A stretch of DNA of 64,000 nt from Pseudomonadota bacterium (GCA_022566895.1 JADFIA010000001.1:631-64630); one strand, 5' to 3'. Shown: positions 6,322-21,352, numbered from the stretch's first letter. Numbers and translations: made by a program. The notes: a model not told the origin generated them from the sequence alone.

Positions 6322-6900
6322 CTATTGGGGCTGTTCTCGGCCGTCTTCGTTATTTTCGTCGAACAGATCGTCGAAGTTCAATTCAATATCACCATCCCGA
6401 AATTCCAGGTACCATCGATTTCCGTCGATCCGATTGACCCGACGAACCGGATGTGGATGCCGTAGCCGTTGCGCCCGAAGAATGCGGCGGCGTTCCATCA
6501 CATCGACGCCCTTTAGGGCCTCGATCACTGCACCGTGAATGGGTTCCTGGATACGAACCGAAAGTTCACGCATTTGCTCGTAAACTTGCCTTAAGGCCTC
6601 CTCGTTCAACTCCACTTCACCAAGCAGCCGCACCGCGTCGCGTCTGGTCTGGCGATAATCACTGTAAACCCGACGCAATTCATGGCGACGTTCGTGCATT
6701 GCGTCCTCAATCCGCTCCAGCGCTTCACCCCGCAAGCCATCGGGGACGCTCTGAAGATTAAGTGCCACAACCGGTCTGACGAGCTGCGATTGCGGCTTCA
6801 GCACACGGGCGACGATGAAGCCACCCAGAAAAAGATTGAGGGCCAAGGAGCCCACCAAAACAACTTTTACCCAGCCAGCCTGTTTGGTAAACCAGTCCAT
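6322..6900 (-). CDS. Periplasmic heavy-metal sensor (ZraP/CpxP-like) family protein
   Basis: N-terminal TM with SLALNLFLGG motif followed by a helical charged domain; third gene of the ECF operon. Confidence 0.7.
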   Translation of the reverse strand: MDWFTKQAGWVKVVLVGSLALNLFLGGFIVARVLKPQSQLVRPVVALNLQSVPDGLRGEALERIEDAMHERRHELRRVYSDYRQTRRDAVRLLGEVELNEEALRQVYEQMRELSVRIQEPIHGAVIEALKGVDVMERRRILRAQRLRHPHPVRRVNRIDGNRWYLEFRDGDIELNFDDLFDENNEDGREQPQ

Positions 6901-7397
6901 CAGTCCACAAGCTCAATATCCGCCACAATCGACGGGTTTTCGAACAGATAGGCGCTGGCGTCAATCCGCTCAATCGATTCCGGCCCGGTCGAAAAATTGG
7001 AAAATCCAAGCATCAAACCCAAAATGCCGGCCGCGGCAAGTCCGGTCAATTGTACGGCAAAACCGGTTGGGCGAAACCAGCTTAGAACCGCTGCCTGGCC
7101 ATGGTCATCTGATCCGGCGCGCCCGCCTCTTGCGGCCCGCCGGGTTTGATGTCCGCTGATCGCCGGAATCTCAGCAAGCCGCCTTAAATAAGCATCATCG
7201 GCTGGCTGCGGGGCCGGCACCCTGTCGAGCATATGATCAAGCGCCCCGCCGGCTTCGAGCAGATTCTTGGCATCGGCGCTGGTTTCGATCAACGCCGTCG
7301 CGGCATCCCGCTCGGCCTCAGGCCAAGCATCAGAGCGCGCACCATAACTGTCCAGAATGGCCCTAAATCGCTCAATTTTCATGGTGCTGCGGGTCAT
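6900..7397 (-). CDS. Putative anti-sigma factor
   Basis: ERF..ILDSYGA....WPEAER N-terminus and a single TM; directly downstream of the ECF sigma gene. Confidence 0.7.
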   Translation of the reverse strand: MTRSTMKIERFRAILDSYGARSDAWPEAERDAATALIETSADAKNLLEAGGALDHMLDRVPAPQPADDAYLRRLAEIPAISGHQTRRAARGGRAGSDDHGQAAVLSWFRPTGFAVQLTGLAAAGILGLMLGFSNFSTGPESIERIDASAYLFENPSIVADIELVD

Positions 7398-7409
7398 AAT
7401 TCCATGCCT

Positions 7410-8021
7410 TTAGCTCTTATCCAAATAATTCCGTATTTGATTATTCATCGCTTTCTTCAGCCGCTTTCGCCCCCTGGTTAGAAGGGATTCCAAAGCTTTG
7501 ACTCCGAGGCCAAGGATTTCTGCCGCCTCCTTGTTGCTCAGGCCCTCATAATAACACAAAGTAATGGCGTATCTCTGCCTTTCCGGCAACTGATCCAACT
7601 TTCGTTTGACATAAGATGCGATTTCACCTTCCTCATAAGCGCCTAACGGGTCCTCTCGTTCATCGACACCGTCGAATCCTTCCGGCAAACTTTCCGGCCG
7701 CTTCTTTCGTTTGCGATCGAGGCACTGGTTCAACACCACGCGATAAAACCAGGTCGTAAATTTGGCTGCGGCCGGATCAAAAGAATTGGCGCGAGACCAT
7801 AATTTTAAGAACGCTTCCTGTACCGCATCTTCGGCTTCTGCCCTGTCCGCCAACACCCGCTCGGCAAAAGCAAGATGGCGGTTCGTGTGGCGGGTCACCA
7901 GGACTGCATAGGCCGCCTCGTTTCCTTCCGCCACCTGCCTGACCAAGACCCGATCCGATTCAGCAGACAAGCCGAAACTCGCACGACCGGTTTTCCCCGG
8001 CTTCTTCGGTGTGTCGCCCAC
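7410..8021 (-). CDS. ECF RNA polymerase sigma-70 factor
   Basis: AEDAVQEAFLKLW, FTTWFYRVVLNQCLD, LPERQR..ITL..YEGLSNKEAAEIL. GTG start after AAGGAG. Confidence 0.92.
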   Translation of the reverse strand: MGDTPKKPGKTGRASFGLSAESDRVLVRQVAEGNEAAYAVLVTRHTNRHLAFAERVLADRAEAEDAVQEAFLKLWSRANSFDPAAAKFTTWFYRVVLNQCLDRKRKKRPESLPEGFDGVDEREDPLGAYEEGEIASYVKRKLDQLPERQRYAITLCYYEGLSNKEAAEILGLGVKALESLLTRGRKRLKKAMNNQIRNYLDKS

Positions 8022-8175
8022 GGCGATGGCGTCTCCTTGGCCGCTCCGTACGCAAACGGCTGTCAATATTGATACGCAATACGGGCGCGCAACCCTTCGT
8101 TTCGCACAAAGTAACATTTCACGCGGAAAACCGGAGATTCCAACTCTTTCACCCGGCCTGCTGCTCAATACTGGA

Positions 8176-14302: not shown

Positions 14303-15397
14303 ATGAATGTCGTAAGTGAGTGGTACCGGAGAACCTTTGCGGACCCTCAGGTCGTGCTATTGGTGCTGATTCTGATCGGTGCCCTGCTCCTTGTCAATTT
14401 CTTCGGCCAGATGCTCGCCCCGGCGATAGCAGCGGTAGTTATCGCCTTCCTGTTGGATGGCCCGGCCGGGCGGCTGCGGGAAAAGGGCCTTTCGAACTCA
14501 CTTGCGGTGAGCATAGTCTTCGTGACTTTCCTGGCTCTTGCGGTGGTGGCATTTTTTGCCATCCTGCCGCCGATCACCGGTCAATTGGGACAATTCTTTC
14601 TGCAGCTGCCAAGCATGATGGCCTCGCTGCAGGAAACTGTTGTGGAGCTCTCGAGATCCAATCCTGAATTTTTCGACGAGACACAAATCGCAGATTTGAT
14701 CGCCCGCCTGCAGAGTGAACTGATCGCCTTGGGCCCTGCCAATGTAAAGGCCTTGCTGGGCAATCTCGCTGGGGCGATCAGTCTGGTCGTTTACACGATC
14801 CTGGTTCCGGTGATGGTGTTTTTCTTTCTAAAGGACAAGAAACTGATCATGAGCTGGATTGCCGGATACTTGCCGAATCACAAACCCCTGGTTGACAAGG
14901 TCTGGGCCGAGGTGGTGGCAAAAGCCGGCGACTATGCCCGCGGCAAGGTCTACGAGATTTTCATTGTTGGGTTCGCGGCCTTTGTCGTTTTTTGGGCGAT
15001 CGATTTGCGTTTTGCCGCCTTTCTGGCGCTGTTGACCGGTTTGTCGGTCATTATTCCCTATTTTGGCGCGGCGCTGGTAACACTTCCGGTCGCACTCGTG
15101 GCCTTTTTCCAATGGGGGATCGGCAGCGAAATGTTGCTCGCGGTGCTGGTCTATTTGGGGCTGCAGGCGGTCGACGGGAATATCTTGGCGCCGTTGTTAT
15201 TCTCCGAAGTCGTCAAATTGCACCCTAACGCCATTATTCTTGCCATTCTAATCTTTGGCGGTCTCTGGGGCTTTTGGGGTGTCTTTTTTGCCATCCCGCT
15301 AGCCACCGTGGCGCACGCGGTCATCAAGGGCTGGTCGGAGCACAGATCCTTGGCCGGCGCGGTATCCCAAGCGGCCGATGATGAAAAAGGGGCTTGA
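14303..15397 (+). CDS. AI-2E family transporter (PerM-like)
   Basis: Multi-TM; IIPYFGA, Q.VDGNIL.P.LFSE.V.LHP, GGLWGFWGVFFAIPLA. Confidence 0.88.
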   Translation: MNVVSEWYRRTFADPQVVLLVLILIGALLLVNFFGQMLAPAIAAVVIAFLLDGPAGRLREKGLSNSLAVSIVFVTFLALAVVAFFAILPPITGQLGQFFLQLPSMMASLQETVVELSRSNPEFFDETQIADLIARLQSELIALGPANVKALLGNLAGAISLVVYTILVPVMVFFFLKDKKLIMSWIAGYLPNHKPLVDKVWAEVVAKAGDYARGKVYEIFIVGFAAFVVFWAIDLRFAAFLALLTGLSVIIPYFGAALVTLPVALVAFFQWGIGSEMLLAVLVYLGLQAVDGNILAPLLFSEVVKLHPNAIILAILIFGGLWGFWGVFFAIPLATVAHAVIKGWSEHRSLAGAVSQAADDEKGA

Positions 15398-15420
15398 CAA
15401 GCGCACGCTTTTATTAGACT
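15394..15420 (+). promoter_or_regulatory. Sigma70-type promoter of the lysis cassette
   Basis: Perfect TTGACA (15394-15399, overlapping the upstream TGA), spacer AGCGCACGCTTTTAT, then TAGACT (15415-15420). The 15-nt spacing is short but matches the candidate cspA promoter. Confidence 0.55.
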
Positions 15421-15423
15421 ATT

Positions 15424-15447
15424 TGGTTATAAACAGAATTATAACCA
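15424..15447. promoter_or_regulatory. Perfect inverted repeat, operator-like
   Basis: TGGTTATAA-ACAGAA-TTATAACCA directly downstream of the -10; AT-rich in a GC-rich genome. Confidence 0.6.
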
Positions 15448-15503
15448 CCAATTAGGAAACTTTTGGGCATTCGCTTCGGCTTGCTTTCTTTTGGGGAGCT
15501 ATT

Positions 15504-15977
15504 ATGCACCTCTCACCGCATTTCACACTTTCCGAAATGACCAAATCGCAAATCGCCCTACGTCGCGGCATCGGCAATTCACTCGACCCAGGAAATCCAG
15601 ACGATGCGGAAGTGATCAACAATCTGAGGCTCCTGTGCCTTGAGGTTCTGGAGCCGGTGCGTGAGGCTTTCGGTATTCCCTTTGCGCCATCGTCCGGTTA
15701 CCGCTCGCCGGCCCTTAATACGGCGTTGGGCTCCAAGCCCACCTCGCAGCATGTCCTGGGGCAGGCGGTGGACTTCGAGCTACCGGGAATCCCGAACTTG
15801 AAATTGGCACAGTGGGTCCGAGACCATCTTAAATACGACCAGCTCATTCTGGAGTTTCATGAGCCCGGCGAGCCCGCCAGCGGTTGGGTGCACGTTTCCC
15901 TTAAGGAGACGGGCAACCGTCGGCGCGAGCTGACCATCAACCGCAAAGGTGTTTTCCCGGGACTTGGCAAGGCCTGA
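15504..15977 (+). CDS. Peptidase M15 (D-Ala-D-Ala carboxypeptidase-like Zn peptidase), phage endolysin type
   Basis: LSPHFTLSE, VLEPVRE, SSGYRS..LN, SQHVLGQAVD (SxHxxGxAxD), DQLILE, WVHVS. No signal peptide; RBS GGGGAG. Confidence 0.88.
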   Translation: MHLSPHFTLSEMTKSQIALRRGIGNSLDPGNPDDAEVINNLRLLCLEVLEPVREAFGIPFAPSSGYRSPALNTALGSKPTSQHVLGQAVDFELPGIPNLKLAQWVRDHLKYDQLILEFHEPGEPASGWVHVSLKETGNRRRELTINRKGVFPGLGKA

Positions 15978-16015
15978 AGGGACGGTTTTGAGGCGCCGGC
16001 ATTTTGACGGCTCAC

Positions 16016-16041
16016 AGCCCGGAGTAGTCCGGGCTTTTTTT
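16016..16041 (+). terminator. Intrinsic terminator 1 between endolysin and holin
   Basis: AGCCCGGA-GTAG-TCCGGGCT followed by a T run (7 T from 16035). Confidence 0.8.
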
Positions 16042-16051
16042 ATGAACCAAC

Positions 16052-16078
16052 GGCCCGGGATTTCCCGGGCCTTTTTTT
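16052..16078 (+). terminator. Intrinsic terminator 2 between endolysin and holin
   Basis: GGCCCGGG-ATTT-CCCGGGCC followed by TTTTTTT. Confidence 0.8.
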
Positions 16079-16095
16079 GTGGAAAGGAAGAAGAA

Positions 16096-16296
16096 ATGTT
16101 ATCCAAACTTTTGGAAGGCGGTCTGTTAAGTGGCCGCAAAACCTACCTGGCGGCGGCTGGCGTCGCAATCTCGGCGGTGATCGCCTACCTGGTCGGCGAC
16201 GCCGGCCTGATGGACACCCTGACGACCGTTGGCGAGGCTCTCGGGATCGGGTTCCTGCGGGCCGGGGTGGCCAAATCCGCAACCCCTCAAACCTGA
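16096..16296 (+). CDS. Small membrane protein, holin-like (66 aa)
   Basis: MLSKLLEGGLLSGRKTYLAAAGVAISAVIAYLVG...ALGIGFLRAGVAK; G[RK]KTY start and two hydrophobic segments. Strong RBS GGAAAGGAAG; lies between endolysin and spanin. Confidence 0.65.
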   Translation: MLSKLLEGGLLSGRKTYLAAAGVAISAVIAYLVGDAGLMDTLTTVGEALGIGFLRAGVAKSATPQT

Positions 16297-16964
16297 TGGG
16301 GTTTTTAAAACTCGGTGGCCTCTTGGCCGCCCTGATGCTGATGGCGGCGGTTGGTTTTTTGTGGAAAGCCAACGAGCGAAAGGCGGCCGAACTTGGCACC
16401 CTGCGAGCCAGCCTGGCCGGTGCCGAGGCCACGATTGCCTTTAACGACCGCCTGGCCATTTACAGCCAGAGGCAAGCGGATGCGCTGGCCGCCCGGGATG
16501 CCGCCAACCAGAGAGCCATGGAGGCCCTTACCAATGAACGCAACAGATTGCGGGTCACCGTCGAAAGACGGGCCCTTGAAGATCCTTATGATTTTGGCGA
16601 TAGTTTTGAGTTTGAGCTTGCCCGGCTGTTCTGTCTTTTCGAAGCCGGAAGTGATCGCGGTGCCCGCAAAGCCTGTAATCTTCATTCCCGCGAAGCCTAC
16701 AAGCCCGAAATCGCCCTTACCCTTACCGTCACGCCCCAACTGGCCGAGCGGTGGGCCGAAGCCTGCGCCGCCGGAGAAGAACGATCAGAGGACTTCTGCC
16801 GTTGGTCGATAACCGGCTTTACAGCGCAAGGCGGGATCACGATCCTCAATCATCTGGAGCGGCTGGCAGCCTTTGCGCTGGCGCTTGAGGATCGGGCCGG
16901 TGTCCTGGAAGCCATGCTTCGCGAGCTGGCGGATCGGCCGCAGGCGGACCAAAAATCCCCTTAA
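16296..16964 (+). CDS. i-spanin (Rz-like) protein; as sequenced it runs on into an o-spanin-like C-terminal domain
   Basis: TGATG coupling to the holin; N-terminal TM ([18 protein letters not shown]), Ala-rich coiled coil and 4 Cys in the distal half. Confidence 0.65.
16576..16812 (+). CDS. o-spanin (Rz1-like) outer-membrane lipoprotein in the +1 frame of the i-spanin
   Basis: (M)[32 protein letters not shown]; lipobox Cys at 16627, Ser at +2, 15 Pro in 61 mature residues. TTG 16576 or ATG 16588 start. Confidence 0.65.
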   Translation: MKILMILAIVLSLSLPGCSVFSKPEVIAVPAKPVIFIPAKPTSPKSPLPLPSRPNWPSGGPKPAPPEKNDQRTSAVGR

Positions 16965-17884
16965 GCCTCGGTCGGCAAGAAGCCTTCGATCGACAGGTAG
17001 CGCTCGCCGGAATCATAATTGAAGCCGAGGATGCGCGATCCCTCTGGAAGCTCGGGAATCTTTTTGGCGATCGCGGCCAGACAGGCGCCCGAGGAAATTC
17101 CGATCAGACAGCCCTCCTCGCGAGCCGCGCGGCGGGCGTACTCCATGGCGTCCTGCTGGTGCACCAGGATAACCCCGTCCAAGAGGTCCATAAAAAGGTT
17201 GTCCGGAATAAATCCGGCGCCGATCCCCTGGATCATATGCGGGCCGGGCTTGCCGCCGCTGATCACCGGGGAATGCTCCGGCTCGACCGCAAAAACTTTC
17301 AGATCCGGCCATTCTTTTTTCAAAAGCTGGGCGCAGCCGGTGATATGGCCGCCGGTGCCGACGCCGGTGATGATACAATCGAGACCCTCGGGAAAATCGG
17401 CCAGGATCTCCTGGGCCGTAAAATTCCTGTGCACATCCAGATTGGCCGGATTGTCGAACTGGGAGGGCATCCAGGCATTGTCCATGGTTTCAAGGATCTC
17501 CTCGGCCTTGGCCACGGCGCCGGGCATGCCCTTTTCCTTGGGGGTGAGGACAAATTCGGCACCATAAGCCAGCATCAGCCGCCGGCGCTCGATCGACATC
17601 GATTCAGGCATGACCAGCAGCAGCCGATACCCTTTCACTGCCGCCACCATGGCCAGGGCAACCCCGGTGTTGCCGGAAGTGGGCTCGACAATCACGGTGT
17701 CTTTGTTAAGGGATCCGTCCGCTTCCGCCGCTTCGATCATCGACAGCCCAATACGGTCCTTGATGCTGCTGGCGGGATTGACCCGCTCCTGCTTGATCCA
17801 GACCTCGTGGGTTGAGGGGAACAGTTTATTCACCCGGATGTGCGGCGTATTGCCGATTGTTTCAAGAATATTGTCGGCCCTCAT
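16961..17884 (-). CDS. cysK: Cysteine synthase A
   Basis: [52 protein letters not shown]. Confidence 0.95.
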
Positions 17885-17919: not shown

Positions 17920-18762
17920 CTAGATGTTCCAGTTCAGCCCGCTTTCGGATTTGTCCGACGATTTGTACATGACCCGTGAGTAGGGCAGGATCGAGTGGGT
18001 CAGAAATACATTCCCTCCGATGACCGAATCATGCCCGACCACCGTCGCACCGCCGAGGATGGTTGCATTTGCATAAATGACAACGCCGTCTTCGATCGTC
18101 GGATGCCGTTTGCTGTTCTTGTCCTCGCGGTCAACTTTGAGCGCACCGAGTGTGACGCCCTGATAAAGTTTGACGTGATCACCGATGATCGCGGTCTCGC
18201 CGACCACAACGCCGGTGCCGTGATCGACAAAGAACGACGCACCGATTTCGGCGCCCGGATTGATGTCGATGCCGGTTTCCATATGAGCGTATTCCCCGAT
18301 CAGACGTGGCAAGAGCGGAATGTCCCGGACATAAAAGCGATGTGCAATCCGATAGGCGGCGACTGCAAAAGTCCCGGGATAAGTAACGATAATCTCGCTT
18401 AATGAGTTGGCGGCCGGGTCGCCGGCCATTGCCGCTTCGGCGTCCAGACGGATGGCCTCGGCGATTTCCGGCAATTCCTGCATAAACGAATCCCCAACCC
18501 GCCGGCGCTCATCTTCGTCCCGATCCCAGAGGCGAGCCAGTAGGTCGAGCAGCTTGGCGCGCACCTCGCCCAACTTGCTCTCGATCCCCTTGGCGTCGCG
18601 CTCATCCTCGCCGGCAAACTGCGGCAGAAGCACGGCCAGCACGTTACGCAAAAACCGGCCGGCTTCCGACATCGTAACGCTCGGCGGGTCATCATAGGCG
18701 GCGTGCCGCGCCAAAAGCACGGCAGCGATTTTCTGAAGACTGGTCTTGTTCTTAGAGGTCAT
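17920..18762 (-). CDS. cysE: Serine O-acetyltransferase (EpsC-type)
   Basis: [41 protein letters not shown]; ends in Ile (LNWNI), as expected for CysK binding. Confidence 0.9.
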
Positions 18763-21275: not shown

Positions 21276-21352
21276 TGGTGCACCCGGCGAGATTCGAACT
21301 CACGACCTCTGCCTTCGGAGGGCAGCGCTCTATCCAACTGAGCTACGGGTGC
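21276..21352 (-). tRNA. tRNA-Arg (anticodon CCG)
   Basis: GCACCCGTAGCTCAGTTGGATAGAGCG-CTGCC-CTCCGAA-GGCAG-AGGTCGTGAGTTCGAATCTCGC-CGGGTGC-ACCA; 77 nt with encoded CCA. Confidence 0.97.

Follow-up and report, generated by a model that had tools for sequence, protein, structure and literature searches.

A stretch of 64,000 nucleotides (nt) from a Pseudomonadota bacterium (GCA_022566895.1 JADFIA010000001.1:631-64630; hereafter the window) carries, between a PerM-like gene and cysK, four lysis genes that all lie on the plus strand: an endolysin gene, a putative holin gene, an i-spanin gene and, embedded within the latter, an o-spanin gene. On balance, and at somewhat better than even confidence, we favor the view that these genes form a complete and intact Gram-negative lysis cassette that came from a phage, has become fixed in the chromosome and serves as a host-controlled (domesticated) module for lysis or release. 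We arrive at this reading because the cassette is chromosomal, is under selection and is tied to no particle genes. The original prediction for this DNA had placed four co-oriented lysis genes between the PerM-like gene and cysK, and both open reading frame (ORF) calls and the sequence itself bear this out. Its further suggestion, that the composition was undescribed, does not stand: the parts are those of a standard Gram-negative phage cassette, and identically ordered cassettes with an M15 peptidase were seen in other genomes as well as in phage-like contigs. What is new is a family-wide syntenic lysis locus with module turnover, a layout in which terminators separate the endolysin from the other genes, and unnamed holin-like and embedded spanin families.

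The first gene of the cassette (15504-15977, +) encodes a cytoplasmic zinc peptidase of 157 amino acids (aa) that Pfam assigns to the M15A type (Peptidase_M15_3, PF08291; E 3.4e-16, scoring 59.8 bits where the cut-off is 23.2) and that PHROG 894 identifies as an 'endolysin' (E 2.4e-38). Nine aligned orthologues all keep the Zn ligands H83, D90 and H130. The H-x6-D block aligns with that of the closest solved structure by sequence, 1LBU, a Zn D-Ala-D-Ala carboxypeptidase from Streptomyces (E 0.0016). Homologues are present in 318 phage records, the top ones being Pelagibacter phages at ~52% identity. As originally described, the enzyme appears to lack a signal peptide; its N-terminus, read from the sequence rather than with a signal-peptide predictor, contains no hydrophobic run, and the protein would therefore need a holin to reach the wall. 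By these matches the product is a predicted peptidoglycan-cutting endolysin. Solitary homologues with 58-60% identity and no holin-like ORF downstream were also encountered in BAL199, Thalassobaculum and Rhodospirillaceae records (L034, L031 and L036), that of BAL199 having a LacI-type regulator gene on one side and a transporter-like gene on the other, and solitary chromosomal M15A 'endolysins' may be common.

The second gene (16096-16296, +) begins 118 nt downstream of the endolysin gene and encodes the putative holin, a protein of 66 aa. It had been described as a two-segment membrane protein, and one segment is indeed a clear transmembrane (TM) helix (approximately residues 16-34, Kyte-Doolittle 2.2); the other is Gly-rich and weakly hydrophobic, with a maximum of 1.27, such that we count a single TM helix. 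The protein has no named family in Pfam, PHROGs or NCBIfam, its tblastn search gave no match in 50,697 phage records, and an alignment of its close relatives matched none of the viral contigs. These close relatives, all from metagenomes, form ten clusters of 49-92% identity, and 24 columns are invariant among 11 close homologues. A profile built from them retrieved 473 representative clusters at E<=0.001, nearly all of 55-75 aa, while its top hit, a 3,652-aa protein, was rejected as a repeat artefact. The resulting ~60-aa family carries the motif L-x-G-K-K-T-Y ... G-D ... L-G-L-G-x-L-R-A-G-V-A-K, and no consistent Pfam or PHROG family emerged among 51 relatives of the putative holin.

The genomic company of this ~60-aa family is informative. 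It is encoded in 84 IMG/VR stretches, and we pooled the 77 same-strand neighboring ORFs from 45 loci, counting over ORFs. The commonest PHROG names among these neighbors were terminase large subunit, amidase, endolysin, peptidase, transglycosylase and Rz-like spanin, and the Pfam families were Amidase_2 (5), Peptidase_M23 (2), Phage_lysozyme (1), GH108 (1) and CHAP (1). A lysis-gene neighborhood of this kind is as would be expected for a predicted holin family. By profile comparison the putative holin shows a probability of at most 7% of relationship to small ORFs on two metagenome contigs (a 66-aa ORF downstream of the spanins on L028 and a 102-aa ORF on L027; see below), and the ~60-aa family scores 5.5% against the 3-TM holins found at this locus in other genera, with the aligned part confined to a shared C-terminal L-G-L-G-x-L-R; at best, these comparisons provide leads. 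Alignments of the two groups (A5 for the ~60-aa family, A8 for the 3-TM 'GTA' holins) both end in this string, and a distant relation between them is possible but unproven.

The third gene (16296-16964, +), whose ATG overlaps the stop codon of the holin gene (ATGA), encodes a predicted i-spanin of 222 aa. The protein has an N-terminal TM anchor and a long helix in the periplasm, and its C-terminal region is conserved, with four invariant Cys residues (alignment A1). Its AlphaFold model shows a single helix over residues 3-95 (mean predicted local distance difference test score, pLDDT, of 72). The fourth gene lies wholly inside the third, in the +1 frame, and runs from 16576 (TTG) or 16588 (ATG) to 16812 (+); it encodes the o-spanin, a small proline-rich lipoprotein. 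The o-spanin signal peptide ends in L-S-L-P-G-C, in which the Pro at -2 departs from the usual lipobox, and both the lipobox Cys and the preceding Gly are invariant in three o-spanin homologues. The N-anchored coiled-coil protein and the hidden lipoprotein of the original prediction are therefore both recovered, with the TM anchor, the helix and the conserved Cys of an embedded ORF. Neither spanin matched a family in Pfam or NCBIfam. The i-spanin matched Rz-like spanins of PHROG weakly (E 0.025 and 0.036), and in the ESM-Atlas it falls closest to the clusters 'Rz-like lysis system protein LysB', DUF2570 and Phage_lysis, with a borderline score of 0.90 that we take as a lead only. A fold search of the i-spanin model against BFVD gave no match at E<=0.001, its profile found nothing meaningful among PDB sequences (best E 0.27), tblastn gave no match in the same set of phage records, and there was no match either for the single sequence among genome contigs or for the profile among viral contigs.

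Two metagenome contigs, L027 and L028, were found with the i-spanin profile, at 63% and 29% identity, respectively. In both, an i-spanin gene with an embedded lipoprotein ORF follows an endolysin gene and a small TM gene, the endolysin of L027 being a lysozyme and that of L028 an M15 peptidase. This gene position supports the spanin assignment independently of the family searches. The embedded o-spanin ORF and its Cys are kept in each (alignment A4), with 63% identity in L027 and 43% in L028, where the lipobox is a canonical L-A-G-C. The lysis genes on these contigs adjoin tail-fiber genes; L027 also carries RecT and exonuclease genes, and L028 a head-decoration gene. We attribute the holin-spanin module to a phage source because the related spanins sit by tail-fiber genes and the holin family sits by viral lysis genes. 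The two contigs share with the window the same spanin family in the same position, and differ from it, as do the cassettes of the phage DSL-LC04 type, in that tail-fiber, head and recombination genes adjoin their lysis genes while housekeeping genes adjoin ours.

Closer relatives of the cassette are also present in metagenomes, where the i-spanin has eleven clusters at 37-99% identity. The holin and i-spanin entries are full length, with many invariant columns, except for three that are partial or mis-started. For example, the identities for endolysin, holin and i-spanin are 87, 89 and 91% on a contig of 121,563 nt, 83, 80 and 80% on one of 963,488 nt, and 72, 77 and 67% on one of 3,924 nt. 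Judged solely by contigs of equal size, the three genes appear to travel together in at least three further diverged lineages. In a separate contig, L026, which matches the window at ~99% identity in cysK-cysE and in the 3' portion of the i-spanin gene, 304 nt with no match in the window genome (L026:1-304, junction near window position 16474) replace the endolysin gene, the holin gene and i-spanin codons 1-57. Outside of these close relatives, other alphaproteobacterial genomes (L037, L039 and L045) encode an M15 endolysin, then a small TM protein, a protein anchored at its N-terminus and a lipoprotein, in the same four-part layout, with holin and spanin families unrelated to those described here.

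The surroundings of the cassette are cellular throughout the portion annotated gene by gene. Upstream lies the AI-2E transporter (PerM-like) gene (14303-15397, +; Pfam E 1.2e-63), which is a conserved anchor of the locus across the family, and downstream lies the convergent cysK (16961-17884, -; Pfam PALP, E 1.1e-68), whose stop overlaps that of the i-spanin gene; cysE (17920-18762) follows beyond it. Genes for an FKBP protein and an acyltransferase complete the immediate neighborhood. Of 20 flanking ORFs scanned from 0.6 to 33 kb of the window, eighteen belong to cellular families above the curated cut-off, among them GDP-mannose pyrophosphorylase, an extracytoplasmic function (ECF) sigma factor, 2-oxoacid:ferredoxin oxidoreductase, dihydroorotate dehydrogenase, PilZ, acyltransferase, PolA, a TonB receptor, FolD and ArgG; one of the remaining two is unmatched and the other has a sub-threshold DUF match, and phage families are found in none of the 20. 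The part of the window from 33 to 64 kb was covered through searches for hallmark families in the whole genome. These searches, against an assembly (G000) of 2.15 Mb in 81 contigs that is 86% complete, gave no match for Phage_capsid (HK97), Phage_portal, Terminase_6N, Phage_sheath_1 or GTA_TIM. Four tyrosine recombinases are encoded in the genome, the closest on the contig being ~82 kb from the cassette and beyond the window. No att-like direct repeat brackets the cassette, no tRNA gene adjoins it, and its G+C content resembles that of its flanks, without any compositional anomaly. As far as these tests reach, the original observation that no prophage surrounds the cassette is upheld.

The arrangement is also not an artefact of assembly. 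L026 and contigs from other metagenome runs span the junctions from perM through the endolysin gene to the terminators, from holin to i-spanin and from i-spanin to cysK, and because independent contigs bridge every junction we conclude that the cassette is not a chimera. The stretch itself is present in marine-sediment and marine metagenome runs from 8 studies, with 15 rows holding at least half of the sampled words. None of the runs listed for it is on record as RNA. Two runs, X19 and X20, whose RNA nature is guessed, contain short and near-identical contigs over parts of perM, the endolysin gene, the junction of terminators and holin gene (16034-16175) and the spanin genes. Since they may contain DNA and contigs show no transcripts, these two runs do not speak to expression or read-through.

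If a phage does not surround these genes, they might serve a particle whose genes lie elsewhere in the genome, as the original prediction had proposed for a gene transfer agent (GTA) or tailocin. An analogous case exists: according to one report, the Rhodobacter capsulatus agent (RcGTA) is served by an orphan endolysin-holin locus, rcc00555-rcc00556, that has kept its local synteny in the Rhodobacterales since their common ancestor (PMC5026251), and the holin of this agent gives the Pfam family GTA_holin_3TM its name (PMC5026251). Holins of that very family are held at perM|cysK by sister genera of the window lineage, and an assembly that is 86% complete leaves room for a particle cluster. However, GTA_TIM was absent from all 41 genomes of the order that were searched, 33 of which are at least 90% complete, while a Caulobacter positive control was matched; the capsid, portal, terminase and sheath families named above are missing from G000; and HK97 capsid genes, found in two of five family genomes searched, do not track the lysis genes. 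No RcGTA-type cluster was found in the assembly at its given completeness. We therefore regard a release module for a GTA, tailocin or other particle as quite improbable, and this part of the original prediction is not sustained.

The perM|cysK region was compared within the family, for which nine species genomes including G000 were available, with the region assembled in seven of the eight relatives. Synteny with perM at this locus is seen in G001-G005, G007 and G008. In G005 and G007, which belong to one genus, the order is perM-endolysin-cysK without a holin. In G003 it is perM-endolysin-3TM holin-cysK, and in G001 perM-endolysin-3TM holin, the endolysin gene of the latter having TAA as codon 2 and forming a long branch. 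G002 and G004 have perM-3TM holin-cysK with no endolysin at the locus, and no Peptidase_M15_3 was found anywhere in either genome (95% and 94% complete, respectively). Finally, in G008 perM abuts cysK with no lysis gene between. Lysis genes in varying combinations therefore occupy the locus in six of the seven assembled relatives, with perM-endolysin synteny in four (G001, G003, G005 and G007), and across the order the endolysin is present in 24 of 41 sampled genomes. The endolysin gene of G001 (L011) reads ATG and then TAA, an in-frame TTG eight codons on could restart translation, and its branch length is 0.94; it is possibly a decaying copy beside an intact 3-TM holin.

The holins of the relatives are of another kind than that of the window. 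Among the five genomes searched with Pfam GTA_holin_3TM (PF11351), the locus holins of G001 and G003 matched and G000 gave no match; those of G002 and G004 were assigned to the same kind by alignment rather than by PF11351, and the four are 57-60% identical to one another. By contrast, the i-spanin profile found a match in only one of the nine family genomes, G000 itself, and within the family the small holin and the spanins are confined to this genus-level lineage only. A 3-TM holin gene lies directly downstream at about one third of ~100 endolysin loci within the order and beyond. For example, the pair of endolysin and 3-TM holin occupies a conserved queD locus in another family and is also found in a phage. 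Cassettes of the phage DSL-LC04 type combine the same families, an M15A endolysin and a 'holin of 3TMs', as the presumed ancestral state of perM|cysK.

In a tree of 94 endolysins the window protein is sister to those of G005 and G007 (Shimodaira-Hasegawa-like approximate likelihood-ratio test, SH-aLRT, 92), and a single clade of all five locus endolysins was not rejected (approximately unbiased test, p-AU 0.90). Its identity to the four orthologues is 52-64%, comparable figures being 57-64% for PerM and, in the three relatives that keep cysK adjacent, 74-78% for CysK. The endolysin thus behaves, by sequence, as an old, vertically inherited and selected resident of perM|cysK in four genera. The simplest history would have an endolysin and a 3-TM holin at perM|cysK in the ancestor, followed by differential loss, and in the window lineage, again as the simplest history that these sequences suggest, replacement of the 3-TM holin by a small holin and spanins of phage origin.

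Selection was gauged at the codon level for the endolysin, perM and cysK genes, and at the protein level for the holin and i-spanin. For the pair G005 and G007, the Nei-Gojobori ratio of nonsynonymous to synonymous substitution rates (dN/dS) amounts to 0.30 in the endolysin gene, compared with 0.08 in perM and 0.05 in cysK. When the window is set against G005 the synonymous sites are saturated, and the dN values are 0.25 (endolysin), 0.32 (perM) and 0.21 (cysK). Because of the ratio of 0.30 and the conserved identities, we consider the retained genes to be under purifying selection that is looser than that on their neighbors. In the comparison of relatives and of dN/dS that the original prediction had called for, the endolysin is a selected fixture of the locus in four genera, and the i-spanin, as seen above, is found in one of the nine family genomes. 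The idea of a domesticated module is borne out as far as the long and selected residence of the endolysin at perM|cysK goes, and for the cassette as a whole domestication is plausible.

Several observations weigh against a host-controlled module and must be set beside this evidence. Within the family, perM|cysK may hold a holin alone, an endolysin alone, the two together or neither, a mosaic that resembles erosion and speaks for a module that is dispensable and often eroded. The dN/dS of the endolysin is 4-6 times that of its neighbors, and the endolysin changes seen within the population (at least three synonymous and at least two nonsynonymous, against at least 14 and at least two for perM) are too few to judge selection. 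Flanking ORF scans reveal no cargo, sensor or regulator gene adjoining the cassette. L026 represents either a disrupted or rearranged cassette of a close strain or a chimera at a contig end. Finally, efficient tandem terminators in front of the holin gene (described below) could simply silence the holin and spanins.

Such points would fit the main rival, a non-functional prophage remnant, in which the lysis genes of an ancestral phage were silenced by the tandem terminators and lost piecemeal, and in which the holin-spanin block is the scar of a later recombination. The mosaic among seven relatives at one locus, the TAA at codon 2 in G001, terminators with no promoter after them, the L026 variant that lacks the upstream part of the cassette, the lack of adjoining cargo or regulator and the raised dN/dS of the endolysin would all be at home in this account. 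Yet the ORFs are intact and the catalytic residues invariant over a family-level divergence at which synonymous sites are saturated, the dN/dS of the endolysin is 0.30 and not ~1, the lone 3-TM holins are as well conserved as PerM, the holin and i-spanin are full length in all 8-10 metagenome relatives down to 63-77% identity, and the composition of the region is not anomalous. A remnant is accordingly possible, and we hold it to be the less probable account by a clear step; were it true, perM|cysK would offer a clean example of slow erosion of lysis genes.

The preferred reading, a host-controlled lysis module, receives a possible mechanism from the regulatory signals of the locus. Two tandem hairpins that resemble intrinsic terminators lie at 16016-16035 and 16052-16071 (+), within a block (16016-16078) that reaches from the endolysin stop to the holin ribosome-binding site (RBS). 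Each has a G+C-rich stem of 8 bp, a loop of 4 nt and then 6-7 T residues. They are the top two sites of a terminator scan and appear in both the minimum free energy (MFE) and the centroid folds (z -2.5). The interval from these hairpins to the holin start yielded no sigma-70-like promoter call, and no Rfam family reached its gathering score in 15300-17100. Because tandem terminators precede the holin and spanin genes with no visible promoter after them, we suggest that lysis is gated at the holin step. Upstream of the endolysin gene, in the spacer that follows perM, a perfect 9-bp inverted repeat, TGGTTATAA-N6-TTATAACCA, occupies 15424-15447 (+) and occurs as a single copy in the assembly. A TTGACA that overlaps the perM stop stands just upstream of it, and related GGTTAT/ATAACC half-sites were found by eye upstream of the endolysin genes of G005, G007 and G001. 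We infer from these sequence features that the inverted repeat is a candidate operator. Overlapping the second terminator, an exact 14-nt direct repeat, TTTTTTGTGGAAAG, was also noted, one copy (16073-16086) running from the T-tail of that terminator into the holin RBS and the other (16355-16368) lying in the codons of the i-spanin membrane anchor; it may be due to chance or may be a trace of the recombination that brought the module in.

Lysis of Gram-negative hosts by phages proceeds in three steps that require a holin, an endolysin and spanins, and the parts of the cassette suggest a similar course. The endolysin gene would be transcribed alone or together with perM, and the signal-less M15A Zn peptidase would accumulate harmlessly in the cytoplasm. 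The holin-spanin genes would be expressed only by read-through or antitermination. The 66-aa holin would then open the inner membrane and let the peptidase reach the peptidoglycan, after which the inner-membrane i-spanin and the outer-membrane lipoprotein o-spanin would disrupt the outer membrane. Candidates for the material released would be DNA, vesicles, cytoplasmic goods or unlinked cargo.

A bolder form of this idea, which we put forward tentatively and regard as doubtful, is that perM|cysK is a long-lived, host-owned 'autolysis switch' of a free-living marine-sediment alphaproteobacterial family, with the endolysin made in advance, the tandem terminators as the sole lock and the modules traded with phages. 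If so, the locus would constitute a release system for extracellular DNA, vesicles or unlinked cargo with no GTA, tailocin or toxin attached, whose holin is of the 3-TM kind in some genera and, in the lineage studied here, belongs to a new ~60-aa family and is accompanied by a new embedded spanin pair. The same terminators invite a different interpretation, in which a cassette kept by the host acts as an abortive-infection or suicide effector that lyses the cell early upon phage attack. A holin behind terminators fits a tightly held trigger, and immunity-type proteins control lysis for the Caulobacter GTA (PMC13236601). Against this, none of eight proteins (the cassette and its upstream neighbors) matched a PADLOC defense model, and a sensor gene is absent nearby; we consider such a role very improbable.

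Comparison with known systems clarifies which features are shared. The cassette resembles lambda S-R-Rz/Rz1 in having the same four functional parts, a signal-less endolysin and an o-spanin gene that lies, in the +1 frame, wholly inside that for the i-spanin. In lambda, too, a terminator (tR', on which Q acts) stands upstream of the late lysis genes. Unlike in lambda, the endolysin gene precedes the holin gene, the endolysin is an M15A peptidase rather than a transglycosylase, the holin and spanins show no significant similarity to any named family, and no phage surrounds them. In evolutionary terms the rcc00555-rcc00556 locus comes closest, in that its syntenic lysis genes lie between cellular genes and away from the structural cluster, and in the GTA_holin_3TM family that it shares with sister genera of G000. 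Rcc00555, however, is described as a putative lysozyme (PMC3423380) and not an M15 peptidase, a GTA cluster is present there and none was found here, and G000 has replaced the 3-TM holin and gained spanins. The Caulobacter GTA is described as using no holin-endolysin (PMC13236601).

The cassette also shares its parts with type 10 secretion. ChiX of Serratia is an M15-clan peptidase. The original prediction had invoked Serratia ChiWXYZ, and the four part types of the cassette indeed match it, with a holin, a peptidoglycan peptidase and spanins outside of a prophage in both. A type-10-secretion-like module for export of a specific cargo, whether lytic in a subpopulation or non-lytic, would also suit a setting that is not a prophage. 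The accounts of these systems link ChiWXYZ and the Yersinia entomophaga cassette to cargo and dedicated regulators, the cargo genes being chitinases and Tc toxins (PMC4259817, PMC10847048), and the examples described there come from Enterobacterales. In contrast, neither cargo nor regulator adjoins our cassette, with no chitinase, toxin or regulator within ~15 kb on either side. The secretion reading is accordingly weakened, and we judge it improbable. Domesticated lysis cassettes with roles in biofilm, vesicles and morphogenesis have been reviewed (PMC8987985), and a full-text search of the literature found nothing on a perM|cysK lysis locus or on the ~60-aa family, although a family without a name would be undetectable in this manner.

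Most known cases of phage lysis cassettes kept by hosts belong to enterobacterial secretion of toxins or chitinases, to pyocin clusters or to the Rhodobacter GTA. A host-controlled module at perM|cysK would extend them to a family of uncultured alphaproteobacteria from marine sediment in which neither particle nor toxin genes were seen, and would show a single syntenic locus whose lysis parts were kept, lost and exchanged over family-level time. It also points to terminator read-through as a possible trigger. For annotation there is a gain in two respects: an unnamed ~60-aa family of ~470 representative clusters, found beside viral endolysins, that current libraries miss, and an unnamed family of embedded i- and o-spanins.

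A few minor observations concern the wider region. The cassette abuts cysK-cysE, and in Rhodobacterales the head-tail cluster of RcGTA is reported to be flanked by pabC and cysE (PMC5026251); the presence of cysE next to both loci may be a coincidence, and descent from one ancestral insertion site would be a remote possibility. The sole tRNA gene of the window, tRNA-Arg(CCG) at 21276-21352 (-), lies ~4.3 kb downstream of the cassette with no integrase or phage gene between. On the other side, ~7 kb upstream of the cassette and on the minus strand, 6322-8168 holds a module of envelope-stress type, which consists of the ECF sigma factor (7410-8168), an unmatched ORF of 165 aa that is a possible anti-sigma factor (6900-7397), and a Metal_resist/CpxP-like periplasmic protein (6322-6900).

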